Assembly (NCBI GenBank): GCA_001001345.1
Contig: LCKI01000001.1
Span: 339-64,338, forward strand
Direction of reading: 5' to 3'
Source of the DNA: Parcubacteria group bacterium GW2011_GWC1_45_14
GTDB lineage: Bacteria > Patescibacteriota > Minisyncoccia > Moranbacterales > GWC2-37-73
Length of the DNA stretch: 64,000 nt
The notes beneath the pieces were generated by a model. The model saw only the letters and a list, made by a program, of their open reading frames with translations. It searched no databases and was not told the origin of the DNA. The position numbers and the translations under genes are program-made. Every line of letters begins with the position of its first letter. Positions within the stretch are counted from its first letter, which is position 1. Shown here piece by piece: positions 1-63,004 of this stretch.

Positions 1-5
1 TTTCC

Positions 6-1403
6 CTACCTCTTCGGCAGGCAAGCTTCCAGGCTCCATATGTTAGCTTTGGTTATTTCCGCTTTCACTATTTTTCCTACCAGATTTTTCCTATCGGATA
101 GCAACTTCACGTTTTTGAGCGTCCTCGTTTTTCCGAAATAAAATTTTATCCCGTGATCAGGCGAGCCTGATTTTACGGGGCCATCTTTTTCTTTTTCTAT
201 GAGAACCTCGATTTTTCTGCCGACATATTTTTTATTGTTGGCGAGCGCCGTCTTTTTGAGGATTTCGTTGAGGGATTTCTCGCGCCACTCCTTTTCCTTG
301 ATCGAAACGTTGTCTTTCATGTTCCAGGCGGCCGTTCCTGGGCGCGGGGAATATTGTCCGAAAAAAACCATATCGAATTTGGATTTTTCCATGACCATAG
401 CGGAATTTCCGAATTGTTTTTTTGTTTCCCCAGGGAAACCGACGATGATATCGGTCGTGATGGAATAGGGAGCATCCGGTTTGTATTTCTTGAAAGAAGT
501 TTTTATTTTCCTGATTAGTCCTAGGTAATGCTTTTGTGTATATTTCCTGTTCATTCTTCGGAGCACGCCGTCGTCTCCGGCTTGGATAGGAAGATGGATA
601 TTTTCGCAAACCTTCTTCAGTTTCGTGATAGTTTCGATCGCCACACTGTCCATATCCTTGGGATGAGAGGAAACAAAATGGATCCAGAATTTTCCAGGAA
701 TTCTGTCTACTTTCTTGAGAAGTTTGGCAAAGGATATTTTTTTATCCGCCTCATCGGCAGATGAATTCTTACTGCTGCTGCAGTAAGAATTCACATTTTG
801 CCCAAGAAGGGTGATGCTCTTGTATCCCTTTGCGACTAAGTTTTTTATTTCAGAAACTATCTCTTCTGCCGGCCTGGAAACCTCGCGTCCGCGCGCATAG
901 GGAACTACGCAATATGAACAGAAATTGTCGCACCCGGTCATTATGGGCACGTATGCGGAAAAAGTGTTTTTGTATTTAGGATTTATTGATAAATAACCTA
1001 TATGCTCTTTATTGTGGAGGGTATTTTGCATCTCGTATTTTGTATCTTGTATTTTCGAATCCATACTAAATACTTGATACAGGATACTTGATACTTTTTC
1101 ACGGAAATCTTTGATTTCCGTGAAAAGATCGACGTCCTTCATTCTGCGGTGGATATCTTTCCTGTTAGCCAGGCATCCCGTGACTACTATTTTTATTTTC
1201 GGATTGTCTTTTTTGAGATTTCTGACTAGCCCGAAAACCCGGTCTTCCGCCATCTGGCGGACTCCGCAGGTATTCAGGATTACCAAGTCGGAGTCTTCTA
1301 TTTTTTCAGCAAGATCAAAACCGCTGCTTTCCAAAAAAGAAGATACGCGTTCGCTGTCGGAAACGTTCATCTGGCATCCGAAAGTTTTTATGAAATAGGT
1401 CAT
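6..1403 (-). CDS. miaB: tRNA-i6A37 methylthiotransferase MiaB (radical SAM MTTase); start moved to MTYFIKTFGCQMN
   Basis: N-terminal MTTase motif FGCQMN, radical SAM CDNFCSYCVVPYARG, C-terminal TRAM-like region; ATG at 1401-1403. Confidence 0.85.
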   Translation of the reverse strand: MTYFIKTFGCQMNVSDSERVSSFLESSGFDLAEKIEDSDLVILNTCGVRQMAEDRVFGLVRNLKKDNPKIKIVVTGCLANRKDIHRRMKDVDLFTEIKDFREKVSSILYQVFSMDSKIQDTKYEMQNTLHNKEHIGYLSINPKYKNTFSAYVPIMTGCDNFCSYCVVPYARGREVSRPAEEIVSEIKNLVAKGYKSITLLGQNVNSYCSSSKNSSADEADKKISFAKLLKKVDRIPGKFWIHFVSSHPKDMDSVAIETITKLKKVCENIHLPIQAGDDGVLRRMNRKYTQKHYLGLIRKIKTSFKKYKPDAPYSITTDIIVGFPGETKKQFGNSAMVMEKSKFDMVFFGQYSPRPGTAAWNMKDNVSIKEKEWREKSLNEILKKTALANNKKYVGRKIEVLIEKEKDGPVKSGSPDHGIKFYFGKTRTLKNVKLLSDRKNLVGKIVKAEITKANIWSLEACLPKR

Positions 1404-1460
1404 AGTTATATTTTTTATAGGGCAGTTCATAATAACAGGAAAACAGGATCGATGCAATGA

Positions 1461-2231
1461 TTAGCGGCATTTGAGATACATTAAAAACTCCTTTTTTCCT
1501 TTTCCTCCCAGAATAGGAGAGTCCGTGATTCCTATGATTTCAAACCCTAAATCTTTGGAGAGATTTTTTATTTTTTCGATGACTTCTTCGTGGAGATTTT
1601 CTTTGTTCACTATACCTTTTTTGATATGCTTTTTTCCTACTTCGAATTGCGGTTTGATGAGCGTGACGATTTCCCCTTTGGTTGAAATCAGTTCAGCGGC
1701 TTTCGGTAGGATATGCGAGAGGGAAATGAATGAGACGTCGATGCAGATGAAATCCAAAAGCTCGGAAAAATTTTCCTTGGATAGGTTTTTGATATGGGTG
1801 TTTTCCATATTCACGACCCTCTCGTCGCTCCTCAGTTTTTCCGCCAATTGTCCGCTACCCACGTCGACGGAGTAAACTTTCTCAGCCTTGTTTTCCAGTA
1901 GAACCTGGGCGAATCCTCCGGTACATGCTCCAAAGTCGGCGCATATTTTATTTTTGACGTCGATGTTCCAATGCTCCAATGCATGTTCCAGTTTCAAGCC
2001 GGCGCGCGAAACCCAGGGAATGTCCTGTTTAATTATTTCAATTTTTGAATTCTCATCCACTTGCTGGGTGGGTTTTGTCGCGATTTTGCCATTCACCCTG
2101 TTAAATTGCTCCGCACCGCCTTCAGCGGATTTAACAGGGTAAATCAAAACACCCCCGTCTTTAATGAGGTTTTTGGCGCGCTCCCTTGATTGCGCCAAGC
2201 CATTTTTTACCAGTAATGCATCCAGTCTCAT
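1461..2231 (-). CDS. tlyA: TlyA-family rRNA 2'-O-methyltransferase (S4 domain + FtsJ-like MTase)
   Basis: S4-like N-terminus (RLDALLVKNGLAQSRERAKNLI), FtsJ motif DFGACTGGF; contains in-frame repeat insertion at 2091-2143. Confidence 0.8.
   Translation of the reverse strand: MRLDALLVKNGLAQSRERAKNLIKDGGVLIYPVKSAEGGAEQFNRVNGKIATKPTQQVDENSKIEIIKQDIPWVSRAGLKLEHALEHWNIDVKNKICADFGACTGGFAQVLLENKAEKVYSVDVGSGQLAEKLRSDERVVNMENTHIKNLSKENFSELLDFICIDVSFISLSHILPKAAELISTKGEIVTLIKPQFEVGKKHIKKGIVNKENLHEEVIEKIKNLSKDLGFEIIGITDSPILGGKGKKEFLMYLKCR
2091..2143. repeat. Palindromic nested-hairpin element copy A, inserted in-frame inside tlyA (encodes YPVKSAEGGAEQFNRVN)
   Basis: ttcaccctgttaaat ... atttaacagggt inverted arms with internal hairpin, same family as copies at 11359, 14846, 14921, 42951, 56444, 62888. 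Confidence 0.6.
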
Positions 2232-2243
2232 ATTATTCGAAAA

Positions 2244-2268
2244 GAGAGCCGCCCGGGAAGCGGCTCTC
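2244..2268 (-). terminator. Hairpin gagagccgc-ccgggaa-gcggctctc followed by U-run on minus strand, downstream of thrS
   Basis: perfect 9-bp stem, T-rich tract on minus strand. Confidence 0.4.
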
Positions 2269-2285
2269 TGGAAAGAAGTTATTTC

Positions 2286-4043
2286 TTAGAGGGATTTGTT
2301 GGAAATTTCCTTTGTCATTTTTTCCACGAAATCTTCAAGTGAAAGAGTTTCTTGTATTTTTTCTCCGCGCTTTCTGATGGTGACGGTTTTGGATTCCTGT
2401 TCTTTTTCTCCGATAACTATCATGTAAGGAGTCTTCTGTTTTTCCGCTTGGGAAATCCGCTTGCCAAGCGATTCCGATTCAAGACTCATTTCCACGCGGA
2501 CATCTTTTTCCAAAAGTTTTCCTTCAACCTTTTTTGCATATCCTTCGAATTTCTCGCTAACAGGTATGATCGCGACCTGGACAGGGGAGAGCCAGAGCGG
2601 GAAGGCGCCAGCAAAATGTTCAATCAGAAGCATCAGGAATCTTTCATATGATCCAAGGATGGCACGGTGGACCATGACGGGATTGATTTCTTTTCCGGTA
2701 TTGTCCGTGTATACGAGATCGAACCTTTTCGGCGTGGCGAAATCCAGCTGTACGGTCGGTATCTGGATTTCCCTTCCCATGGAATCTTTGAACATGAAAT
2801 CGAGCTTGGGTCCGTAGAGAGCGGCTTCACCTTCGCGTTTTTGCGCATCAAGTCCCATCTCATCGGAAATTTCCTGAAGCATCTGTTCGCACTTGTCCCA
2901 ATCCTGGGGGTCACCGATATATTTTTCAGGATGGGCATAGTCTCGCACTGAGAGGGATACCCAATGGTTTCCCCACATTCCGAGCGAGCTATAGAAATCT
3001 TTGATTATCTCAACCATGTTTTTCATTTCCTGTTTCACTTGGTCGACGGTACAGAACGAATGTCCGTCTTCGACGGTAATCGCGATCACGCGATTGAGTC
3101 CTCCGATTTCACCAGGCTTCTCATCGCGGTACTGTTTTTCCGATTCCATATATCTTATTGGAAGATCGCGATATGATCTTGGTCGGGAAGCGAAAATCTG
3201 GGTTTGGTGTGGGCACTGCACCGGCTTCATTACGTAATTCTGTTTGTAGTGCGATTTGACCTGGAAAAGTTCGTCGCCGAATTTCTGGGCATGTCCGGAT
3301 TTCTCATAAAGGTCTATTTTGGCCAGATGGGGAGTGGAAACTTTTTGGAATCCGTAACCCCTGCAAACCTTTTCGATGTGTTTTTGTAGTTCCTCTTTTA
3401 TGGTAGTTCCTCTCGGAGTGAAGAGCGGTAATCCCGGTCCGACGAGATCGGAGAAGGCGAAGAGGTCCAATTCCTTGCCAAGTTTTCGGTGGTCCCTTTT
3501 GGCGGCTTCTTCCAACTGCTGGAGGTATTCTTTGAGTTTCTTTTTATTTTCAAAAACTACTCCATAAATCCTTTGGAGCTGGATATTGTTCTCATCTCCT
3601 TTCCAATAGGCTCCGGAAATCCTGGTGAGCTTGAGCGCCTGCGGGTCTATTTTTCCGGTCGAGTCGATGTGTGGTCCTGAGCAGAGGTCGATGAAATCAC
3701 CGGATTTATAAATCGAGACATTCTCGTTGCCTTGCGTGATAAGGTCGTTGATGATTTCAACCTTGTAACTTTGTCCGATCCCTTCGAATTTTTCCTTAGC
3801 TTCCTGCGCCGAAAGTTCGGCCCGTTCGAATTCGTGGTTTTCCTTGATGATCCTTTGCATCTTTTCTTCGAGCAGGGGAAGATCTTCAGGGATGAGGGTT
3901 CGGGGGAGTTCGAAGTCATAATAGAATCCGTTTTCGATCGCCGGTCCCATGGCGAATTTGGCTTCGGGAAACATCTCAAGAACGGCAGCTGCTAATACGT
4001 GCGCCGAAGAATGCCTTAAGATTTCCAATTTGTCTTGCTCCAT
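2286..4043 (-). CDS. thrS: Threonyl-tRNA synthetase, short form lacking N-terminal TGS domain
   Basis: starts just before HSSAHVLAAA editing-domain motif; class II aaRS catalytic and anticodon-binding regions. Confidence 0.9.
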   Translation of the reverse strand: MEQDKLEILRHSSAHVLAAAVLEMFPEAKFAMGPAIENGFYYDFELPRTLIPEDLPLLEEKMQRIIKENHEFERAELSAQEAKEKFEGIGQSYKVEIINDLITQGNENVSIYKSGDFIDLCSGPHIDSTGKIDPQALKLTRISGAYWKGDENNIQLQRIYGVVFENKKKLKEYLQQLEEAAKRDHRKLGKELDLFAFSDLVGPGLPLFTPRGTTIKEELQKHIEKVCRGYGFQKVSTPHLAKIDLYEKSGHAQKFGDELFQVKSHYKQNYVMKPVQCPHQTQIFASRPRSYRDLPIRYMESEKQYRDEKPGEIGGLNRVIAITVEDGHSFCTVDQVKQEMKNMVEIIKDFYSSLGMWGNHWVSLSVRDYAHPEKYIGDPQDWDKCEQMLQEISDEMGLDAQKREGEAALYGPKLDFMFKDSMGREIQIPTVQLDFATPKRFDLVYTDNTGKEINPVMVHRAILGSYERFLMLLIEHFAGAFPLWLSPVQVAIIPVSEKFEGYAKKVEGKLLEKDVRVEMSLESESLGKRISQAEKQKTPYMIVIGEKEQESKTVTIRKRGEKIQETLSLEDFVEKMTKEISNKSL

Positions 4044-4411
4044 AAATTTTTAACGGCAATTTCAAATGCCAAATTGTAAATTTCAAATCAATGTCTTAAT
4101 TGCAAAATGTTTTAAGATTTGTCATTTGAGAATTTAAAATTCATTTGGAATTTGAAATTTTTAATTTGTAATTCTTATAAATAAAAAACACCCTGAAATA
4201 TGAGAATAGGAAAAATTAATTTTCCAATATCGAGGCTTCCGGTTTCGTTCGGAGGCGGTTCCACTCGATTTCCCATAATTTCTTGGGCACTTTATGCGCC
4301 TATTCGTAGGCCGCTTGAACGGAAGCTCCGCGGATGGTTGGGCCGCATCTGCGCTTCATTCGATTGTGGTTTTATTATATGGAAATATGACCCATTTGTC
4401 AATAAGTATAG

Positions 4412-10490: not shown

Positions 10491-11174
10491 ATGATTGAAT
10501 CTTTGTCCAAGAGAATCGGTGTCGAATTCGCCGAGATCTCGCTTTTGCAACAGGCCGTTACGCACAGATCATATCTTAATGAAAATAGGGATTATAAACT
10601 CGACCATAACGAACGGCTCGAATTTTTGGGTGACGCCGTTTTGGAGCTTATCGTGACGGAACATCTTTACAATAATTATGACAACCCGGAAGGCGAGCTC
10701 ACCGCTTGGAGGTCGGCATTGGTGAACGGTGAAATGCTGGCGGTCATCGCCAAGGGCCTGGGAGTGGAGGATTTCCTTATGATGAGCAAGGGGGAGAGCA
10801 AAGACACCGGCAGGGCGCGTCAATATCTTTTGGCCAACGCCATGGAAGCTATCATAGGGGCTATTTATATAGACCAGGGGTATGAGAGCGCGAAGAGATT
10901 CGTTTTGGATAACGTCGTGGTCAAACTTAAGGAGATTTTGGAAAACAAGCTTTATCTCGATGCTAAAAGTTATTTCCAGGAAAAAGCGCAGGAGAATGAA
11001 AAAGTGACGCCTTCATATAGGGTCATCAAGGAATGGGGGCCTGACCATGATAGGCATTTTGTCATAGGTGTTTATTTGGGAGAGAAGTTGGTGGCCGAAG
11101 GGGAAGGTACTTCCAAGCAAGAGGCGCAGCGGGAAGCCGCCAAGAAAGGATTGGAGGTCAAAGGCTGGCTATAG
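10491..11174 (+). CDS. rnc: Ribonuclease III
   Basis: ERLEFLGDAVLELIV signature, C-terminal dsRBD. Confidence 0.9.
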   Translation: MIESLSKRIGVEFAEISLLQQAVTHRSYLNENRDYKLDHNERLEFLGDAVLELIVTEHLYNNYDNPEGELTAWRSALVNGEMLAVIAKGLGVEDFLMMSKGESKDTGRARQYLLANAMEAIIGAIYIDQGYESAKRFVLDNVVVKLKEILENKLYLDAKSYFQEKAQENEKVTPSYRVIKEWGPDHDRHFVIGVYLGEKLVAEGEGTSKQEAQREAAKKGLEVKGWL

Positions 11175-11358: not shown

Positions 11359-11427
11359 ACAAAAATTCACCCTGTGAAATCCCCGACGAGTCGGGGTCCG
11401 CCTCCAGCGGAATTTCACAGGGTAAAA
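11359..11427. repeat. Palindromic nested-hairpin element copy B, 5' of the amidohydrolase gene
   Basis: acaaaaattcaccctgtgaaat ... aatttcacagggtaaaa with two internal hairpins. Confidence 0.6.
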
Positions 11428-11437
11428 AACAAACAAG

Positions 11438-13033
11438 ATGTACGATATTTTGATAAAAAACGGCACGATCGTGGATGGCACAGGCAATCCGATGTATAAG
11501 GGGGATGTGGGCATAAAGGATGGATTGATCAAGGAGATAGGAGATTTGCATAACGAAAACGCGGAAAAAATCATCAATGCCTTGGGGAAATTGGTTGTCC
11601 CGGGGTTCGTTGATGTGAACAATCATTCCGATACTTATTGGCGAATTTTTATTGATCCGAATCTGGAAAGCTTGCTTCATCAGGGAATCACGACGATAGT
11701 AGGCGGGAATTGCGGATCATCCCTGGCTCCCCTGGTCAACAAGGATATTATCAAATCCATCCAAAAATGGGTCGATATCAAAGGGGTCAATCTTAACTGG
11801 CTTTCGGTTGGGGAATTTCTTGATGAGATAGAAAGACGGAAATTGCCGGTTAATTTCGCTACGCTCGTGGGGCATGGAACATTACGCCGGGGAATCATCC
11901 AGGATGAGGTCCGCGATCTCACTTCGTCCGAAATAGACATGATGGAGAAAATGCTCAAGGATGCGATGAAGGACGGGGCTATCGGCTTCTCCACGGGTCT
12001 TGTTTATACGCACGCAAAACGCGCTTCGCAAGACGAGATAATGCGCTTGGCCGAGGTGGTCAAAAAATACGAAGGAGTGTATACCACGCACGTCCGCGGT
12101 GAATCCGGAGAACTTATCGACGCTGTCGAGGAGGCGGTCAATATCGCCCAAAAGACTGGGGTGAAGCTCCAGGTTTCGCATCTTAAGGCCATGGGAGAGA
12201 GGCATTGGCATTTGATGGAAGAGGCTGTCAATCTGATCGAGACTGCTAGGATGAGCGGATTGGATATCAATTTCGACGTCTATCCGTATACCGCGACCGG
12301 GTCTGTTTTGTATATTCTGCTTCCGGACTGGGTTGCTGAAGGAGGAAAAAAACTCATGCTGCAAAGACTCAAGGATCCGGATATCAGGGCTAGGGCGATC
12401 AAGGAGATGAAGGAAGACGCCTTTGATTATTCTAAAATCGTGATTTCTATTTCCCCGTTAGACAAGACGCTGCGAAAAAAGAGTATCGCTGAAATAGCTA
12501 AAAGCCAAGGGAAAGGCATTGAGGAGGCTATAATCGACACCCTGATCGCCAGCGAGGGAAGAGTGGTTACCATGATGGAGGTCCTTAGTGAGAAAAATGT
12601 CAAAAACGCTATCCAAAATCCTTTTTCGATCATATCTTCTAATGGTAGCGGATATTCCATCGATCACCAGCAAACCGGAGAACTCGTGCATCCTAGGAAC
12701 TTCGGTTCTTTTCCGCGCGTGCTTGCTAAATATGTGAGGGCAAAGAGTCTTTTGAGTTGGGAGGAAGCTATCCGCAAGATGAGCGGGCTTCCGGCGGAAA
12801 AATTCGGCATAAGGAAAAGGGGAATTATCAAGGTGGATAATTTCGCGGATATCGTGGTTTTCGATAAAAACAATGTCGAGGATCTGTCCACGACCGACAA
12901 CCCGTACCAATATTCGAAAGGTATTGACTGGGTGGTCATAAATGGTAAGGTGGTAATTGACGAAACGAGGCTTACTGAAGCCAGGCCGGGTGCGGTCCTG
13001 CGGAGGGAGTCAAGGTCAATCTTTGAATTTTAA
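11438..13033 (+). CDS. Amidohydrolase, N-acyl-D-amino-acid deacylase (D-aminoacylase)-like; HxH metal motif replaced by NNH
   Basis: YDILIKNGTIVDGTG...VVPGFVDVNNHSD resembles D-aminoacylase N-terminus. Confidence 0.75.
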   Translation: MYDILIKNGTIVDGTGNPMYKGDVGIKDGLIKEIGDLHNENAEKIINALGKLVVPGFVDVNNHSDTYWRIFIDPNLESLLHQGITTIVGGNCGSSLAPLVNKDIIKSIQKWVDIKGVNLNWLSVGEFLDEIERRKLPVNFATLVGHGTLRRGIIQDEVRDLTSSEIDMMEKMLKDAMKDGAIGFSTGLVYTHAKRASQDEIMRLAEVVKKYEGVYTTHVRGESGELIDAVEEAVNIAQKTGVKLQVSHLKAMGERHWHLMEEAVNLIETARMSGLDINFDVYPYTATGSVLYILLPDWVAEGGKKLMLQRLKDPDIRARAIKEMKEDAFDYSKIVISISPLDKTLRKKSIAEIAKSQGKGIEEAIIDTLIASEGRVVTMMEVLSEKNVKNAIQNPFSIISSNGSGYSIDHQQTGELVHPRNFGSFPRVLAKYVRAKSLLSWEEAIRKMSGLPAEKFGIRKRGIIKVDNFADIVVFDKNNVEDLSTTDNPYQYSKGIDWVVINGKVVIDETRLTEARPGAVLRRESRSIFEF

Positions 13034-14558: not shown

Positions 14559-14686
14559 GATTTATTTGGCCGTGCCGCGTGATCATGAGTGAACGTTCTT
14601 CTGCGTACCCACGTAAAATAATTTCTGTTGAAATTATCACGTGGCTCGCGAAAATCATTCACAAATGAACTCATGATTTTACGCGG

Positions 14687-14715
14687 TTGCTTTTTGGGAA
14701 AAAGTGTGCTATAAT
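14687..14715 (+). promoter_or_regulatory. Sigma70-like promoter TTGCTT-17-TATAAT followed by 6-codon mini-ORF (MKGVSP) and hairpin/T-run
   Basis: -35 at 14687-14692, -10 at 14710-14715, terminator-like hairpin around 14735-14770. Confidence 0.4.
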
Positions 14716-14845: not shown

Positions 14846-14910
14846 TTTTACCCTGTTAAATAATCCTGCTTGGGCGGGATTGCCGCTTAACGGCATTTAA
14901 CAGGGTGAAC
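14846..14910. repeat. Palindromic nested-hairpin element copy C1
   Basis: ccctgttaaataat ... atttaacagggtgaac. Confidence 0.6.
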
Positions 14911-14920
14911 AAAAATAAAT

Positions 14921-14990
14921 ACAAAAATTCACCCCTGTTAAATTGCGCTTGTAGCGCACCGGCCTTGCCGGATTTAACGGGGCAAGAAAA
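14921..14990. repeat. Palindromic nested-hairpin element copy C2 (tandem with C1)
   Basis: acaaaaattcacccctgttaaatt ... gatttaacggggcaagaaaa. Confidence 0.6.
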
Positions 14991-36640: not shown

Positions 36641-37765
36641 ATGACTTTGACTTTTTTGATATCGATTTCGATACTTTTGCTGGCGGTAGTCCTATGGTTC
36701 GTTTTCGATTTGAAAAAGAGGGTCGTTTTGAGTACGGAAAATCGTGAGGAGCGCGACAGAATGGTGGCTATGCAGGAATCACTCCGGCATATCGTCGATG
36801 AAAACCGCGAGCTTCGCAAGGAGATAGATTCGAAGCTCTCCCAAACCCATCGCGCCGGTCAGGATCAGATGACCCAGACGATACGCACAGTACAAGGGAT
36901 TACCGAGCAATCCGCAAAACTTATCAGTAACGTCACGGAAAAACTGACGAAACTGGATGAAACCAACAGGCAAGTGGTTAATTTCTCCGCCCAACTCCAA
37001 AACCTTCAGGATATCTTGAAAAATCCCAAACAGCGAGGCGTTCTGGGCGAATATTTCCTGGAAGAAACACTCAAGAACGTGCTTGGTCCGAAATCGTACC
37101 AGATGCAATATAAGATGGGAAAGAGCGAACGGACCGAACAGGATCTGATAGTGGACGCGGTCGTTTTCGTCAAGGACAAGATAGTGCCCATAGATTCCAA
37201 GTTCTCCCTGGAGAATTATGAGAGGATTTTGAATTCCGCCGACAGTGCGGAGCGCGAAAAGTTCGAGAAATTGTTCAAGCAAGATTTGAAAAATCGCATC
37301 GACGAAACTTCGAAATACATCCGTCCTGAGATGGGGACTATGGATTTCGCTTTCATGTTTATACCGTCGGAGGCGATTTATTATGATTTATTGGTGAATA
37401 AGGTGGGTACTGGCCAGGTGAATACGCGGGATCTGATCGAATATGCCTTCCAGGAGAAAAAGGTCATCATCGTTTCCCCAACCTCTTTCTTGGCTTATCT
37501 GCAGACGGTTCTGCAGGGGCTCAGGGCCTTTCAAATAGAGGAGAGCGCCAAGGAGATCCGGACCAACGTCGGCAAGCTCCAGCAGCATATCGCGAAGTAC
37601 GACGAATATTTCAAGAAAATAGGGAACAGTCTGGGAACCACGGTGAACCATTATAATGCCGCCCACAAGGAATTTGAAAAAGTCGACAAGGATGTCGCAA
37701 GGATAACGGAAACCGACAAGGTGATCGAACCGCTCGCACTGGAAAGGCCGTATGAGAATATGTGA
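36641..37765 (+). CDS. rmuC: DNA recombination protein RmuC
   Basis: N-terminal TM, coiled coil, C-terminal RmuC domain (FAFMFIPSEAIYYDLL). Confidence 0.8.
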   Translation: MTLTFLISISILLLAVVLWFVFDLKKRVVLSTENREERDRMVAMQESLRHIVDENRELRKEIDSKLSQTHRAGQDQMTQTIRTVQGITEQSAKLISNVTEKLTKLDETNRQVVNFSAQLQNLQDILKNPKQRGVLGEYFLEETLKNVLGPKSYQMQYKMGKSERTEQDLIVDAVVFVKDKIVPIDSKFSLENYERILNSADSAEREKFEKLFKQDLKNRIDETSKYIRPEMGTMDFAFMFIPSEAIYYDLLVNKVGTGQVNTRDLIEYAFQEKKVIIVSPTSFLAYLQTVLQGLRAFQIEESAKEIRTNVGKLQQHIAKYDEYFKKIGNSLGTTVNHYNAAHKEFEKVDKDVARITETDKVIEPLALERPYENM

Positions 37766-42950: not shown

Positions 42951-43025
42951 ACAAAAATTCACCCAGTTAAATAATTTTGCTTTTGGCAAAATTTCCGCAA
43001 AGCGGAATTTAACGGGGCAAGAAAG
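42951..43025. repeat. Palindromic nested-hairpin element copy D
   Basis: acaaaaattcacccagttaaataat ... aatttaacggggcaagaaag. Confidence 0.6.
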
Positions 43026-43106
43026 ATTATCTGAAAAAAAGACGCGGGGCTAACAGCTTCGTATACTACAGGATTTCTGACAGTATTTTAGAAGGAGGTG
43101 ACTATC

Positions 43107-43244
43107 ATGGCAAAGAAAAAAGTAGCTAAAAAAGCAGTAAAAAAGGCTGTAAAAAAAGTTGCAAAGAAGAAAGTTGCTAAAAAAGCTCCTAAAAAAGCTG
43201 TAAAAAAAGTAGCAAAGAAGAAGACTGCAAAAAGAAAAAAATAG
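43107..43244 (+). CDS. 45-aa Lys/Ala-rich histone H1-like basic protein (MAKKKVAKKAVKKAVKKVAKKKVAKKAPKKAVKKVAKKKTAKRKK)
   Basis: GAAGGAGG RBS 7 nt upstream, followed by terminator; below ORF-track length cut-off. Confidence 0.55.
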   Translation: MAKKKVAKKAVKKAVKKVAKKKVAKKAPKKAVKKVAKKKTAKRKK

Positions 43245-50682: not shown

Positions 50683-50765
50683 GGGTAGTTGGCGGAGTGG
50701 TCAATCGCAGCTGACTGTAAATCAGCCGACTTCGGTCTTCGGGGGTTCGAATCCCTCACTGCCCA
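50683..50765 (+). tRNA. tRNA-Tyr(GUA) with long variable arm
   Basis: acceptor GGGTAGT/ACTGCCC, anticodon loop CTGTAAA, T-loop GGTTCGAATCC. Confidence 0.8.
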
Positions 50766-50862
50766 CCGCGTAAAATCATGAGCTTTGCGAGTGATTTAAG
50801 CGCCCCGTGATAATTTGCGAAAGCGAATTATTTTACGGGGATATACCATTAAAAATAAGCTC

Positions 50863-51156
50863 ATGATCACGCGGCACGGCCGTGAGGGATTCTACTATGT
50901 ATATGTCATAGAAAATGACCATGATTTGAGTTGGTATATTGGATTTACGATTAATTTTGGAAAAAGATTGCAGGAGCACAACTCCGGTAAATCACCGTAT
51001 ACTTCCAGGAAACAGGGAAAACGGAGGGTTATATATGCGGAGTGTTATCTTTCCAAAAAAGATGCGTTGTCAAGGGAGGAATTCTTGAAATCCGGTTCTG
51101 GTAGAAGATTTTTAAAGAACCAATTAAAGAACTACTTGCACGCGACGCCGTTGTAG
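50863..51156 (+). CDS. GIY-YIG nuclease domain protein (YhbQ/UPF0213-like), stop overlaps 5' end of tRNA-Thr(GGU)
   Basis: FYYVYVIEN...WYIGFTINFGKRLQEHNSG. Confidence 0.6.
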   Translation: MITRHGREGFYYVYVIENDHDLSWYIGFTINFGKRLQEHNSGKSPYTSRKQGKRRVIYAECYLSKKDALSREEFLKSGSGRRFLKNQLKNYLHATPL

Positions 51157-51733: not shown

Positions 51734-51982
51734 ATGCATTACGTCTATCTTCTTAAATTGGAAAACACCAAAAAGAATTTTTATATTGGTTGTACTTCTG
51801 ATTTGAAGAGGCGTTTACGTGAGCATCAGTCTGGGAATACTCAAACGACAAAAGGAAAAAATCCCAAACTTATCTATTATGAAGCATTTTCCGATAAGGA
51901 TTTGGCTCAAAAAAGAGAAGAGGGATTGAAAACAAGCGGATCCGTTTATAATGCGCTGATAAGAAGGTTGGGATTAAGATAA
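51734..51982 (+). CDS. Second GIY-YIG nuclease domain protein, flanked by 20-nt direct repeats
   Basis: HYVYLLKLEN...FYIGCTSDLKRRLREHQSG. Confidence 0.6.
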   Translation: MHYVYLLKLENTKKNFYIGCTSDLKRRLREHQSGNTQTTKGKNPKLIYYEAFSDKDLAQKREEGLKTSGSVYNALIRRLGLR

Positions 51983-51986
51983 GATT

Positions 51987-52055
51987 GCGGGCATCGTATA
52001 GTGGTAATACGGCGGTCTCACCAGTCAGTCGCGACTGACGGGTGTCTCCAAAACC
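51987..52055 (+). pseudogene. Pseudo tRNA-Trp: 5' half (to anticodon loop) carrying 26-nt palindromic insertion with ctc duplication, no T-arm/3' half
   Basis: identical to 52088-52120 of intact tRNA-Trp then accagtcagtcgcgactgacgggtgt insert. Confidence 0.45.
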
Positions 52056-52087: not shown

Positions 52088-52158
52088 GCGGGCATCGTAT
52101 AGTGGTAATACGGCGGTCTCCAAAACCGTTAACGTGGGTTCGATTCCTACTGCCCGTG
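52088..52158 (+). tRNA. tRNA-Trp(CCA)
   Basis: anticodon loop CTCCAAA, T-loop GGGTTCGATTCC, acceptor GCGGGCA/TGCCCGT. Confidence 0.75.
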
Positions 52159-52162
52159 CAAT

Positions 52163-52335: not shown

Positions 52336-52355
52336 GGATTCCTACTGCCCGTGCA
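52336..52355. repeat. 20-nt direct repeat of tRNA-Trp 3' end (gattcctactgcccgtgcaa), att-site-like
   Basis: identical to 52141-52160. Confidence 0.45.
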
Positions 52356-52497
52356 AATTAATGAAAAAACGCTTATTTAGGGCGTTTTTTTGTATCTTCT
52401 ACTTCTATAATATTTTTTAATATTGACAATTTTTTTAAAACCTTGTATATTTTCATGAAAGTTTTGTTCCTTAAACAATTTCGAGAGGAGAAGCGCC

Positions 52498-56319: not shown

Positions 56320-56443
56320 TGCCAATGTTCTTACAATGAAATTATAACGGACATGCATCATCATGATATGATGCATGTCCGTTTTTTTATTTTTTATGTC
56401 GTTTGTGGTAAAATAAAATCACTTGAAAAAACTTCATATAAAA

Positions 56444-56508
56444 ACAAAAATTCACCCTGTTGAATCCCCGATGCTTCGGGGTCGGCTGGGCCGAATTCAA
56501 CAGGGTAA
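56444..56508. repeat. Palindromic nested-hairpin element copy E, right arm abuts ATG of oxidoreductase
   Basis: aaaacaaaaattcaccctgttgaat ... attcaacagggtaa. Confidence 0.6.
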
Positions 56509-57873
56509 ATGAAAAAAATACTTTCAATCGGTTGCGGAGGAGCTGGAATGTTCAGTGCCATCGTCGCGACGCAACTGAGAAAGGGGGAATTTGAGGCGAT
56601 AGTGCTTTCGGATGAGAAGGATATCTATTGCCGTTGCACGACGCCGTATATCGTGACGGGAGAAGCCCAGCTATGCGACGCTATCCAGCCGGAGAGCATG
56701 ATCGAGAGTTATGGTCCGAAAATCGTGCATGAAAAAGCTATCAGTATAAATACTAAAAAGAAACACGTCCTTACGAAAGAAGGGCACATTTTCGATTATG
56801 ACTACCTGGTCATCGCTACCGGAGCATCTCCCTTTGTTCCCCAAATCAAGGGAATAGATTCCGAAAAGGTCTATACAGTCAGAAACAGTTCCGATATGGA
56901 ATGCATCCAAGGGTGCCTGGGAAAATCCAAGAGCGCGGTCGTGGTCGGCGCGGGAGTCATCGGGATCGAGATGGCGGGAGCGCTAAGAGCCAGAGGTCTG
57001 GACGTGAGTTTGGTGGAATACGCGTCCTCGCTTTCTTCCGGCATCGCCGACAAGGAATTTTCCAAAAAAATAATCTCCCACCTGGAAGAGAATGGAATAA
57101 GGACGATGTTCAGAAGCAAAGTCGTGGAGATCAATGACGCATCAAGAAAAAGAAAAGAAATAGTTATTAAAAAAGGAAGGAATCAGGAGAAACTGGTCGC
57201 CGATTTCGTGGTAGTGGCGGCGGGAATACGCCCCAATTTGGATGTCATCGAAGGAACGAAGATCAAAGCCAATCAATTCGGGATATTGGTTGATGGGAAA
57301 ATGCAGACGAACGCGAAGGACGTCTATGCTTGCGGAGATTGCGCTGTGCCTATTTCGGCGGTGACTGGAAAAAACGAGCCGAGCTCGCTGGCTTCAAGCG
57401 CTATCCAACAGTCCAAGATCGTCGGCTACCAGATGGCCAGTTTTCCAATCAAATATGCCGGCTCGACCGGGGCGTTCGCTTTCCAGACGCTCGGAAAAGA
57501 ATATGCGGCTGCGGGACTGACCGAGGAGGAAGCGCGCAAGAAATTCAGGTGGGTGGTCGTTGGACGCGCCGCGACTACGGATGTGTATAAGGATTTGGAA
57601 CGTAACAAGCCCTTGGACGTGAAACTGATCTTTGCCGGACCCAAGATGAGGTTGGTCGGTTATGAAGGTTTCGGCAACGGAGTGATCGCCTCGGCGGAAG
57701 TGGCCAGTTTCGCGATCGGACTCCGTCTGAATATCTTGAAAGTCCTGAAATTCAACTACATCGCTCATCCGAGCCTGACTCCTTGGCCGTTCATGAATCC
57801 GATTATCATGGCGACCGAGGACGCGGTGGGGAGTATTATGAAAAAAATCAAGGTTTTTTTCGGGAAAAAATAG
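56509..57873 (+). CDS. FAD-dependent pyridine nucleotide-disulfide oxidoreductase (NADH oxidase/CoA-disulfide reductase family)
   Basis: GCGGAG FAD motif, VVVGAGVIGIEMAGAL NAD motif, redox Cys YCRCTTPY. Confidence 0.8.
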   Translation: MKKILSIGCGGAGMFSAIVATQLRKGEFEAIVLSDEKDIYCRCTTPYIVTGEAQLCDAIQPESMIESYGPKIVHEKAISINTKKKHVLTKEGHIFDYDYLVIATGASPFVPQIKGIDSEKVYTVRNSSDMECIQGCLGKSKSAVVVGAGVIGIEMAGALRARGLDVSLVEYASSLSSGIADKEFSKKIISHLEENGIRTMFRSKVVEINDASRKRKEIVIKKGRNQEKLVADFVVVAAGIRPNLDVIEGTKIKANQFGILVDGKMQTNAKDVYACGDCAVPISAVTGKNEPSSLASSAIQQSKIVGYQMASFPIKYAGSTGAFAFQTLGKEYAAAGLTEEEARKKFRWVVVGRAATTDVYKDLERNKPLDVKLIFAGPKMRLVGYEGFGNGVIASAEVASFAIGLRLNILKVLKFNYIAHPSLTPWPFMNPIIMATEDAVGSIMKKIKVFFGKK

Positions 57874-61491: not shown

Positions 61492-62907
61492 ATGGCGGAG
61501 AAAAAGGAAAACATGATGGAAAAAATCGTTTCGCTTTGCAAAAGGAGGGGTTTTGCGTTCCCTTCATCCGAAATCTACGGAGGGTTCGCGGCTATCTATG
61601 ATTACGGGCATTACGGAACGCTTCTCAAAAACAATATCCGCGACGCCTGGTGGAGGCATATGGTGCAATACAGGGATGACGTCGTCGGTTTGGACAGCGC
61701 GATCTTCATGCATCCCACGACCTGGAAAGCTTCCGGGCACATAGACAGCTTCGATGATCCGCAGATCGATTGCAAGAAATGCAAAGCCAGGATGAGGGCG
61801 GACCATGTCTTGGAGCTTTTCGGCATCAGCGCCGACAAGGCCCCCTTGGATTTCATCAATGTCGAATTGGGGAAATTGCGCGAACTTGGAAAATTGAAAT
61901 GCCAGACTTGCGGTTCGGATGAATTGACTGAGGCGAAAAGATTTTCCTTGATGGTCAAATCGAATCTGGGATCCCCGACGGATGCCCTCAGTGAGGAGAA
62001 TGTGGTGTATTTGCGTCCGGAAACTTGCGGAGGGATATACTTGGAATACAAAAACACTTTGGATTCGACCCGCGTGAAACTCCCTTTCGGAATAGCCCAA
62101 GTGGGAAAAGCGTTCAGGAATGAAATCGTGGCGAGGCAGTTCGTTTTCAGGACGAGGGAATTCGAGCAGATGGAGATGCAATACTTCCTGCACCCGAAGG
62201 ATATGAAGGAGAAATATGATATGTGGAAGCAGGTCAGATGGGATTGGTACAAGGAATATGGCATGGGCGAGGATGATGTCAGGTGGTACGAGCATGAGAA
62301 ATTGGCGCACTACGCTTCGGAAGCCTATGACGTCGAATATAATTTCAAATCCTTGGGAGGCTTCAAGGAAGTGGAAGGAATCCATGCTAGGGGCGATTGG
62401 GATCTTTCCCAGCACAGCAAGTTCTCCGGAACCGACCTGAGTTATTTCGATGAAAAGACTGGAGAGAAATTCATTCCCCATATTATGGAGACATCAGTGG
62501 GTCTCAACCGTCTGTTTTTGATGTTTATCGACAAGGCTTACACTGAAGAGGAAATCAGCGGTGAGATAAGGACCGTCCTTAAGTTCGACAAGAGGTTGGC
62601 TCCGATTAAGGTCGCCATCTTCCCTTTGATGAAAAACAGGCCCGAACTGGTCGGAAAAGCCAGGGAAATCTATGACAATCTCAAACTCAGTTTCATGTGC
62701 GAATTCGACGACAACGGAAATGTCGGAAAAAGATACCGCCGACAGGACGAGATCGGAACCCCGTATTGCGTAACCGTGGATTTCGATTCTCTGGAAAAAG
62801 GCGACGTGACGGTGCGCGACCGCGACACGATGGAGCAGGAAAGGGTGAAAATAGAAGAATTGGAAAATTATTTCACGGAGAAGTTTAATGTTCACCCTGT
62901 TAAATAA
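61492..62907 (+). CDS. glyQS: Glycyl-tRNA synthetase, alpha2 dimeric type
   Basis: KRRGFAFPSSEIYGGFAAIYDYGHYGTLLKNNIRDAWW N-terminus; last 5 codons and stop supplied by repeat copy F. Confidence 0.85.
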   Translation: MAEKKENMMEKIVSLCKRRGFAFPSSEIYGGFAAIYDYGHYGTLLKNNIRDAWWRHMVQYRDDVVGLDSAIFMHPTTWKASGHIDSFDDPQIDCKKCKARMRADHVLELFGISADKAPLDFINVELGKLRELGKLKCQTCGSDELTEAKRFSLMVKSNLGSPTDALSEENVVYLRPETCGGIYLEYKNTLDSTRVKLPFGIAQVGKAFRNEIVARQFVFRTREFEQMEMQYFLHPKDMKEKYDMWKQVRWDWYKEYGMGEDDVRWYEHEKLAHYASEAYDVEYNFKSLGGFKEVEGIHARGDWDLSQHSKFSGTDLSYFDEKTGEKFIPHIMETSVGLNRLFLMFIDKAYTEEEISGEIRTVLKFDKRLAPIKVAIFPLMKNRPELVGKAREIYDNLKLSFMCEFDDNGNVGKRYRRQDEIGTPYCVTVDFDSLEKGDVTVRDRDTMEQERVKIEELENYFTEKFNVHPVK

Positions 62908-62956
62908 TTTTGCTTAGGCAAAATTCCTGCGCTGCAGGATTCAACGGGGCAAGAAT
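62888..62956. repeat. Palindromic nested-hairpin element copy F overlapping glyQS stop
   Basis: ttcaccctgttaaataat ... attcaacggggcaagaatc. Confidence 0.6.
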
Positions 62957-62974: not shown

Positions 62975-63004
62975 AGCAGGATCCGACAAGGGTCCTGTTT
63001 TTTT
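62975..63004 (+). terminator. Rho-independent terminator after glyQS
   Basis: gcaggatcc-gacaa-gggtcctg ttttttt. Confidence 0.55.

Follow-up and report, generated by a model that had tools for sequence, protein, structure and literature searches.

The stretch of 64,000 nucleotides analysed here (the window) comes from Parcubacteria group bacterium GW2011_GWC1_45_14 (contig LCKI01000001.1, positions 339 to 64,338) and holds seven copies of a small palindromic repeat, 52-65 nt long, several of which are fused to or nested in genes (Table 1). One of them, copy E, runs into a gene for a pyridine nucleotide-disulphide oxidoreductase: positions 56444-56511 read AAAAA-TTCACCCTGTTGAAT-CCCCGATGCTTCGGGG-TCGGCTGGGCCGA-ATTCAACAGGGTAA-ATG, and the final A of the element (56509) doubles as the A of the ATG. 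This ATG is taken as the true start because the Rossmann motif of the protein, MKKILSIGCGGAG, begins there. The coding end of glyQS, (V)HPVK with the TAA at 62905-62907, comes from copy F, and the remaining copies are likewise set among housekeeping genes (miaB, tlyA, dnaE, rnc, murD, aroA, prfA, rpsB, tsf and glyQS surround the copies). Both the glycine-tRNA ligase (GlyRS) and the amidohydrolase encoded beside copy B are 100% identical to Candidatus Moranbacteria (GW2011_GWC2_45_10) proteins. A first-pass annotation of this DNA had placed the element against the oxidoreductase ATG, at the end of glyQS and 15 nt ahead of the amidohydrolase gene. The first two placements hold and the third is about right, the GGGT of copy B ending at 11423, 14 nt ahead of the ATG at 11438. 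That description overlooked copy A, which is read in the frame of tlyA, and the range of the family beyond this genome. The 15-mer of the left end occurs nine times in the window against 0.11 expected, and a covariance model built from related copies (R1) finds exactly seven strong matches in the window, at 42-74 bits and E-values of 1e-10 to 1e-20.

Table 1. Copies of the repeat and adjoining features in the window, with the extent of each match to model R1.
Feature	Position	Strand	R1 match	Remarks
tlyA	1461-2231	minus		
Copy A	2092-2143	+	2092-2143	Inside tlyA, read in frame as a 16-residue insert, YPVKSAEGGAEQFNRV, in the S4 domain
rnc (RNase III)	10491-11174			Copy B lies directly 3′ of it
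Copy B	11366-11426	+	11366-11426	Between rnc and the amidohydrolase gene; arms are a matched variant, TGTGAAAT/ATTTCACA
Copy C	14847-14909	+	14847-14909	murD-aroA spacer; reversed end polarity (TTTACCC...GGGTGAA)
Copy D	14928-14990	+	14928-14986	18 nt past copy C
Seventh copy	42958-43023	+	42958-43021	About 85 nt upstream of a Lys/Ala-rich histone-like open reading frame
Intrinsic terminator of the gene upstream of copy E	56346-56393	+		16-bp stem and T-run, independent of the element
A-rich motif AAAAACAAAAA	56440-56450	+		Directly 5′ of copy E; pre-existing leader, outside the element
Copy E	56451-56509	+	56451-56509	Left end TTCACCCTGTTGAAT (56451-56465), right end ATTCAACAGGGTAAA (56495-56509)
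Copy E hairpins	56466-56481 (hairpin 1); 56482-56494 (hairpin 2)	+		
Oxidoreductase coding sequence	56509-57873	+		454 aa; Pfam Pyr_redox_2, 2e-50
glyQS (glycine-tRNA ligase)	61492-62907	+		471 aa; 100% identical to Candidatus Moranbacteria GlyRS P0121
Copy F	62891-62955	+	62891-62953	Variant with right end ATTCAACGGGGCAAGAA
glyQS intrinsic terminator	62975-63003 (approx.)	+		GCAGGAUCC...GGGUCCUG and U7, 3′ of copy F

The ends of the element are 15-nt inverted repeats, TTYACCCTGTTRAAT and ATTYAACAGGGTRAA, that enclose two small hairpins, and all copies share the layout TTY-ACCCTGTTRAAT, hairpin, hairpin, ATTYAACAGGGT-RAA with a near-invariant 12-nt core, ACCCTGTTAAAT. Pairing of the ends with each other, together with the two abutting inner hairpins, gives a perfect three-way (T- or Y-shaped) junction that leaves no base unpaired and that can form from either strand; the folds are predicted at -21 to -37 kcal/mol, their z-scores range from -3 to -7 whichever strand is folded, and a coaxial helix of 23-25 bp is predicted. 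Across the family the inverted ends span 12-15 nt with about 96% of cells paired, and the arms have GTTRRRY and RYYYAAC as their inner 7 nt. The two ends are distinguishable: of the 54 copies that have C or T at the expected positions, 45 have TTC at one end and TTT at the other, and the order of the two hairpins relative to this polarity is random (16 against 15). Subfamilies lengthen the conserved ends individually or alter both arms jointly, as in the ACCCCGTGTAAT/ATTACACGGGGT arms of locus L059, and copies B and E likewise carry matching changes in both arms.

Comparison with relatives at 79-90% identity, which places insertion boundaries and duplication lengths only approximately, indicates how the copies came to lie where they do. 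Five of the seven (A, B, C, D and E) are missing at the orthologous loci of relatives at 79-88% amino-acid identity, which retain the same genes in the same order. Two contigs of a sister lineage (L124 and L125), with an oxidoreductase 88% identical to that of the window, have the leader ...cttcatatgcaaaacaaaaacaaaATG free of the element where the window has ...cttcatataaaaacaaaaa[element]ATG, so that comparison of the orthologous 5′ regions identifies copy E as inserted DNA. In tlyA the 16 extra residues are shared by the window protein and P0002 and are missing from P0003, P0004 and more distant TlyA sequences. The empty allele in L122, where GTGTTAATT is joined directly to GACGGTAAA, is shorter by exactly 48 nt (16 aa) than the filled allele, GTTTTGATT[48 nt]AATGGCAAA; the predicted read-through peptide of this copy is YPVKSAEGGAEQFNR, and the Pfam match to the S4 domain of the window TlyA breaks off at profile position 30 of 48. 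Four related lineages (among L148-L152) lack copies B, C and D, with no model match over about 20 kb in each. Copy F has an orthologue at the same place in L124 and L125, its stems intact and its loops changed, and the GlyRS encoded there ends ...KVYPVK before the stop; other glyQS homologues end ...EKF[NKS]x and lack VHPVK. The proposal of the first-pass annotation that an insertion made the present C-terminus of glyQS is thus upheld, and copy F is older than the other copies. The same copies are found in independent assemblies. In sum, the aligned loci show repeated insertion of the element within this Moranbacteria lineage.

One contig bearing on the tlyA site, L123 (DODM01000016.1, positions 1-4136), is a mosaic that is 100% window-like until about 40 nt past the tlyA element and 100% like the L122 lineage from there on, and represents either a chimeric assembly or a real recombinant. 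A cluster of substitutions that might have been read as co-conversion of the flank at this insertion is explained by this two-lineage mosaic.

The effect of the element on proteins extends well beyond glyQS and tlyA. Among 109 distinct copies, seven are read through by open reading frames (ORFs) extending at least 150 codons on each side and ten supply the stop codon to an ORF of at least 150 codons, which amounts to about 16% of distinct copies; five of the ten stop-supplying copies give the same tail, xHPVK or xDPVK followed by the stop. At looser length cut-offs, in-frame copies from Patescibacteria and Omnitrophota are found in GatA, KsgA, an IscS-like desulfurase, the FtsZ linker, a MalK-like ATPase, HolB, ExbB/MotA and LeuRS, and the five cases scanned against Pfam were confirmed. 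The usual reading frame gives the peptide [VI][HY]PVK[SC]...[QL]FNRV[KN]. There is no clear out-of-frame gene interruption among the copies and hence nothing that suggests removal at the RNA level; two out-of-frame candidates for such excision look like adjacent genes rather than one split gene. The genes compared show that copies in coding sequence persist when they lie in frame (xHPVK...FNRVx) or at the extreme 3′ end, where the TAA of the element terminates the protein. A single copy at L061 3918-3974 (Moraniibacteriota UBA12142) parallels both E and F in one place: the element takes up the whole of an intergenic gap and no more, the 397-codon ORF upstream of it ends ...IHPVK with its stop in the left end, and the last few bases of the element begin a frame of about 360 codons free of stops.

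The flanks of the copies suggest why they collect at gene boundaries. A left flank of the form AAA(A/T)ACAAAAA is common to four of the seven copies (B, D, 42958 and E), and the sequence AAAACAAAAA is already present at both empty sites that were recovered, those of E (L124/L125) and B (L151). Because the empty sites carry it, the motif belongs to the target and not to the element. These sites show the preferred target to be an A-rich leader that lacks a Shine-Dalgarno sequence, and such a preference, combined with selection against disruptive insertions, would account for the position of the copies at gene boundaries. How the target is cut is indicated in two directions. Flanking direct repeats of at least 6 nt accompany 35 of 105 copies and only about five in each of the shuffled and inverted controls, an enrichment that points towards staggered cuts. 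The offsets of these repeats vary, so that target-site duplications are not clean, and at tlyA the net gain of 48 nt against a 52-nt end-to-end element leaves no room for a duplication; both observations point away from staggered cuts. The insertion sites of E and B lie in A-runs, which makes any duplication there ambiguous.

Selection on the structure was assessed with 144 distinct copies in an alignment fitted to the model, which includes both strands of many copies, so that the counts are inflated and the pattern is unaffected. Standard pairs fill 96% of cells. The inner hairpins are 97% paired, use all four Watson-Crick pair types and show double-sided changes at 13 of 13 pairs, and the covariation score of 0.445 compares with 0.108 in shuffles and at most 0.071 when the pairing partners are slid. 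G:U pairs make up only about 1% of cells. Since G:U pairs are scarce and both strands fold equally well, the pattern argues for palindromy that is maintained at the level of DNA rather than by selection on RNA. That quasi-palindromes are corrected by template switching is well established as a mutational process, and either this process or a requirement for folding could keep the inner hairpins perfect.

The family is not confined to Moranbacteria. The pattern ACCCTGTTRAAT-N20-50-ATTYAACRGGG, searched in one genome per species, matches at least 120 loci in about ten bacterial phyla, and the matches listed include many classes of Patescibacteria, WOR-3 and Stahlbacteria, Omnitrophota, Desulfobacterota (on one 4.1-Mb contig), Bacteroidota (on one polished 253-kb contig), Cloacimonadota, Calditrichota, Acidobacteriota, Armatimonadota and Thermodesulfobacteriota. 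A single viral contig among 2.9 million matched, and curated plasmid and phage collections gave only chance partial matches. In two metagenome-assembled genomes (MAGs) of WOR-3 (L117 4700-6450 and L120 4800-5700) there is a subfamily whose interior has one hairpin or no structure. Short direct repeats that recur from copy to copy, AACCACAGA or ATCTGCGT, always bracket it, and other palindromes and small ORFs lie in between; the arrangement may have come about by insertion at specific sites or may be part of a composite repeat of larger size.

[quoted passage not shown] The trans-acting enzyme would recognise the conserved core, and its substrate could be either the ends as duplex DNA or a single strand in folded form. 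That copies are joined to the start of the oxidoreductase gene and to the stop of glyQS would then be a by-product of target preference and purifying selection. The first-pass annotation is thereby retained insofar as it saw inserted DNA that now forms gene termini, and set aside where it assigned the copies Shine-Dalgarno, terminator or regulatory roles.

Several observations weigh against a trans-mobilised MITE-like element. No autonomous element or cognate insertion sequence with these ends was seen in the sequence covered, which comprised the window and the 120 loci (about 0.9 Mb), and the ORFs lying between solo ends, considered as a possible autonomous partner, are housekeeping genes. 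A scan of 30 window ORFs gave no transposase or recombinase match, and an all-against-all BLAST of 1,749 ORFs gave no recurrent neighbour gene, the largest cluster being UvrA/ABC-type proteins at 10 of 121 loci. The hairpins differ greatly between copies of one genome, which is unusual for a recently amplified MITE, nor would MITE ends normally be expected to keep a 12-mer invariant across about ten phyla. The irregular offsets of the flanking repeats and the missing duplication at tlyA count here as well. Finally, the copies are biased in orientation with respect to transcription (15 sense, 4 antisense), a hint that there could be a role at the RNA level or one linked to transcription.

Comparison with described repeats places the element nearest to mobile palindromes that tolerate coding sequence. 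RPEs are small palindromic mobile repeats that often lie in frame in unrelated housekeeping genes whose protein is not destroyed (PMC10969869). The element resembles them in inserting a palindrome in frame in protein genes and adding a peptide, and no mobilising enzyme is known for either. The descriptions set the two apart, RPEs being about 100-150 bp and found largely in Rickettsia, whereas the element has 52-65 nt, a range of about ten phyla, a fixed 12-nt core in both ends and a three-way junction. With the Correia repeat enclosed elements (CREE) of Neisseria, and with ERIC, RUP and SPRITE repeats, it shares terminal inverted repeats, many dispersed gene-adjacent copies and presence or absence between strains; it is, as MITEs are, short and non-coding. 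However, Correia elements are 100-155 bp long with a TA duplication, an integration host factor site and promoters, and the element is smaller, shows no clear fixed duplication and no convincing promoter, and differs in its covarying inner hairpins and multi-phylum range. Overall it differs from described MITEs in its very small size, its junction free of unpaired bases, hairpins that vary within one genome and a core found across about ten phyla. Neither a description of the element nor a relevant paper on MITEs in the candidate phyla radiation (CPR) was found in the literature searched, the coverage of which is incomplete.

Repetitive extragenic palindromic sequences (REPs), and the bacterial interspersed mosaic elements (BIMEs) and REPINs formed from them, are also short extragenic palindromes present in high copy number. 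Each REP is itself palindromic, which the ends of the element, TTYACCCTGTTRAAT, are not. REPINs are inverted doublets that fold to a hairpin and are thought to move via single-stranded DNA. REPs are imperfect palindromes marked at one end by the tetranucleotide GTAG or CGTC (PMC3733652); the ends of the element (TTYACCC and GGGTRAA) lack this tag, and no gene resembling a REP-associated tyrosine transposase (RAYT) was seen among window ORFs or the neighbours of the loci. Derivation from IS200/IS605 was also rejected, as elements of that type have no inverted ends and two hairpins that are alike.

The alternative that survives best concerns the form in which the element moves. Mobility or recombination through a folded single strand, as for integron attC sites, the CTX-phage attP hairpin or the T-shaped repeats of parvoviruses, would have an HUH nuclease or tyrosine recombinase read the closing stem and junction; we regard it as unlikely, and it represents a different mechanism for the same mobile element rather than a denial of mobility. 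The terminal repeat of adeno-associated virus (AAV) shares the architecture of one long stem closing two small palindromes, which occur in both orders (flip and flop), much as the hairpin order of the element is random with respect to end polarity. The likeness is one of structure only. Rep nicks the AAV repeat, which is 125-145 nt long and lies at both termini of a linear viral genome, whereas the element is interspersed in chromosomes, with its lone match among the viral contigs. The almost exclusively Watson-Crick stems on both strands, the matched arm changes in copies B and E and the lack of a clean duplication at tlyA would all fit a folded substrate, although a single protein that binds both ends could also yield matched arms, and the enriched flanking direct repeats fit staggered double-strand cuts better. 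As in attC sites, structure is conserved above sequence, and the arms fit the GTTRRRY/RYYYAAC consensus. However, the order of the boxes is reversed relative to attC, extrahelical bases and an unpaired spacer are missing, the copies are dispersed among housekeeping genes and do not form cassette arrays, and no intI, HUH or other recombinase gene was seen nearby. An 8-nt match of the arms to the XerD arm of E. coli dif is kept as a lead only, the resemblance being limited to these 8 nt and the arm spacing of 20-50 nt being wrong for dif/Xer. By analogy with parvoviral repeats and attC, a bolder reading, tentative and in our estimation rather doubtful, would make the repeat a pan-bacterial T-shaped foldback family of about 60 nt that is propagated or maintained via folded single-stranded DNA, has its invariant stem ACCCTGTTAAAT read by an enzyme, crosses at least ten phyla of mostly uncultivated bacteria and remodels essential proteins through in-frame insertion.

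It is improbable, more so than single-strand mobility, that the copies are cis-acting RNA modules selected at gene boundaries as terminators, mRNA stabilisers, RNase III sites or translational regulators. The position of several copies at gene edges, the sense bias and a very stable RNA fold (the -21 to -37 kcal/mol given above) would suit such modules, and Correia and ERIC elements have known effects on mRNA via RNase III or RNase E (PMC10969869). However, the genes flanking copies E and F have intrinsic terminators of their own, at 56346-56383 and at about 62975-63003 (Table 1), with a matching hairpin and T-run at the position of the glyQS terminator in L124. No sense-strand T-run follows copy E or F, a terminator scan called no sense-strand terminator at either, and neither presents the G+C-rich hairpin with U-run of an intrinsic terminator, so that the terminator role suggested earlier finds no support. 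The AGGGT of copy E, which had been offered as a Shine-Dalgarno surrogate, fares no better: its AGGG forms base pairs within the closing stem, in a junction of -34 kcal/mol, and stands only 3 nt from the AUG, and the ancestral leader, caaaacaaaaacaaaATG, was already without a Shine-Dalgarno sequence. A dedicated regulator is difficult to reconcile with close relatives that keep the same genes and gene order in the absence of five of the seven copies, and with copies that lie in frame inside essential proteins such as GatA, KsgA and FtsZ. The near absence of G:U pairs and the equal folding of both strands are also unlike structurally selected RNA. No Rfam family matches the element, the search of the window at gathering thresholds returning three tRNAs only and a permissive scan of 56380-56580 only sub-threshold chance matches.

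Consequences at the RNA level could nonetheless arise as side effects of a mobile element. Folding predictions make occlusion of the start codon by the transcribed element possible, and on the same basis copy E, once transcribed, probably reduces initiation at the oxidoreductase start. In Correia elements and other MITEs, transcribed hairpins can be cut by RNase III, and inversion has also been reported (PMC10969869). By analogy, cleavage of the predicted coaxial helix by RNase III is plausible, and any transcribed copy could serve as a substrate.

Chance similarity or an assembly artefact, which two anomalous contigs among those fetched might bring to mind (the mosaic L123 and the palindromic L005), can be dismissed given the excess of the 15-mer over expectation, model E-values down to 1e-20, the recovery of the same copies in independent assemblies and copies on long-read contigs of 0.25-4 Mb. 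Contig L005 (JAHJJO010000063.1) is perfectly palindromic about its midpoint, an assembly artefact; its LeuRS ORF still has an in-frame insert of the element.

Other features of the region deserve mention in their own right. A second repeat family of about 120 nt occurs at 14569-14690 (+) and 50762-50882 (minus), with an outer inverted repeat, ACCGCGTAAAATCATGAG/CTCATGATTTTACGCGGT, a nested AATT hairpin and weak R1 scores (18.5 and 16.9 bits); its murD-aroA copy is conserved in L149 and L150 and is therefore old, and it may be a functional RNA. Two partial copies flank the tRNA-Trp gene (52088-52159): its 5′ half is repeated ahead of it (51979-52019, then a hairpin) and its 3′ end after it (52337-52366), which could be remnants of an integration or duplication event. 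In a Moranbacteria relative, L148 (1-1168), an RVT_1 reverse transcriptase lies beside a bAvd-like gene a few kb upstream of dnaE, a pair resembling a diversity-generating retroelement that the syntenic region of the window appears to lack. The small histone-H1-like ORF downstream of the seventh copy has its start at 43108, behind a strong ribosome-binding site (GGAGG), so the genome does use Shine-Dalgarno sequences at some genes, and contains a Lys/Ala-rich repeat (AKKAVKK...) with a 12-nt period at 43098-43223. The window also encodes RmuC (36641-37765), which in E. coli is linked to inversions at short inverted repeats; its presence and the adjacency of rnc to copy B are probably both coincidences.

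The consequences for the organisms that carry the element concern proteins that they can hardly do without. Genomes of the CPR are streamlined and otherwise carry few mobile elements, and yet in them this repeat has rewritten essential genes (those for GlyRS, TlyA, FtsZ, KsgA and GatA), at the termini and in the internal loops of the proteins and in the 5′ leaders. Gene callers and annotators of MAGs should accordingly expect inserts of 16-20 residues of the form xHPVK...FNRVx and tails of the form xHPVK before a stop. Among uncultivated phyla with shared habitats, the element cleanly marks recent insertion and may also mark horizontal exchange. Its invariant 12-nt core, together with the protein that would read it, provides a tractable lead to a new transposition or recombination activity.

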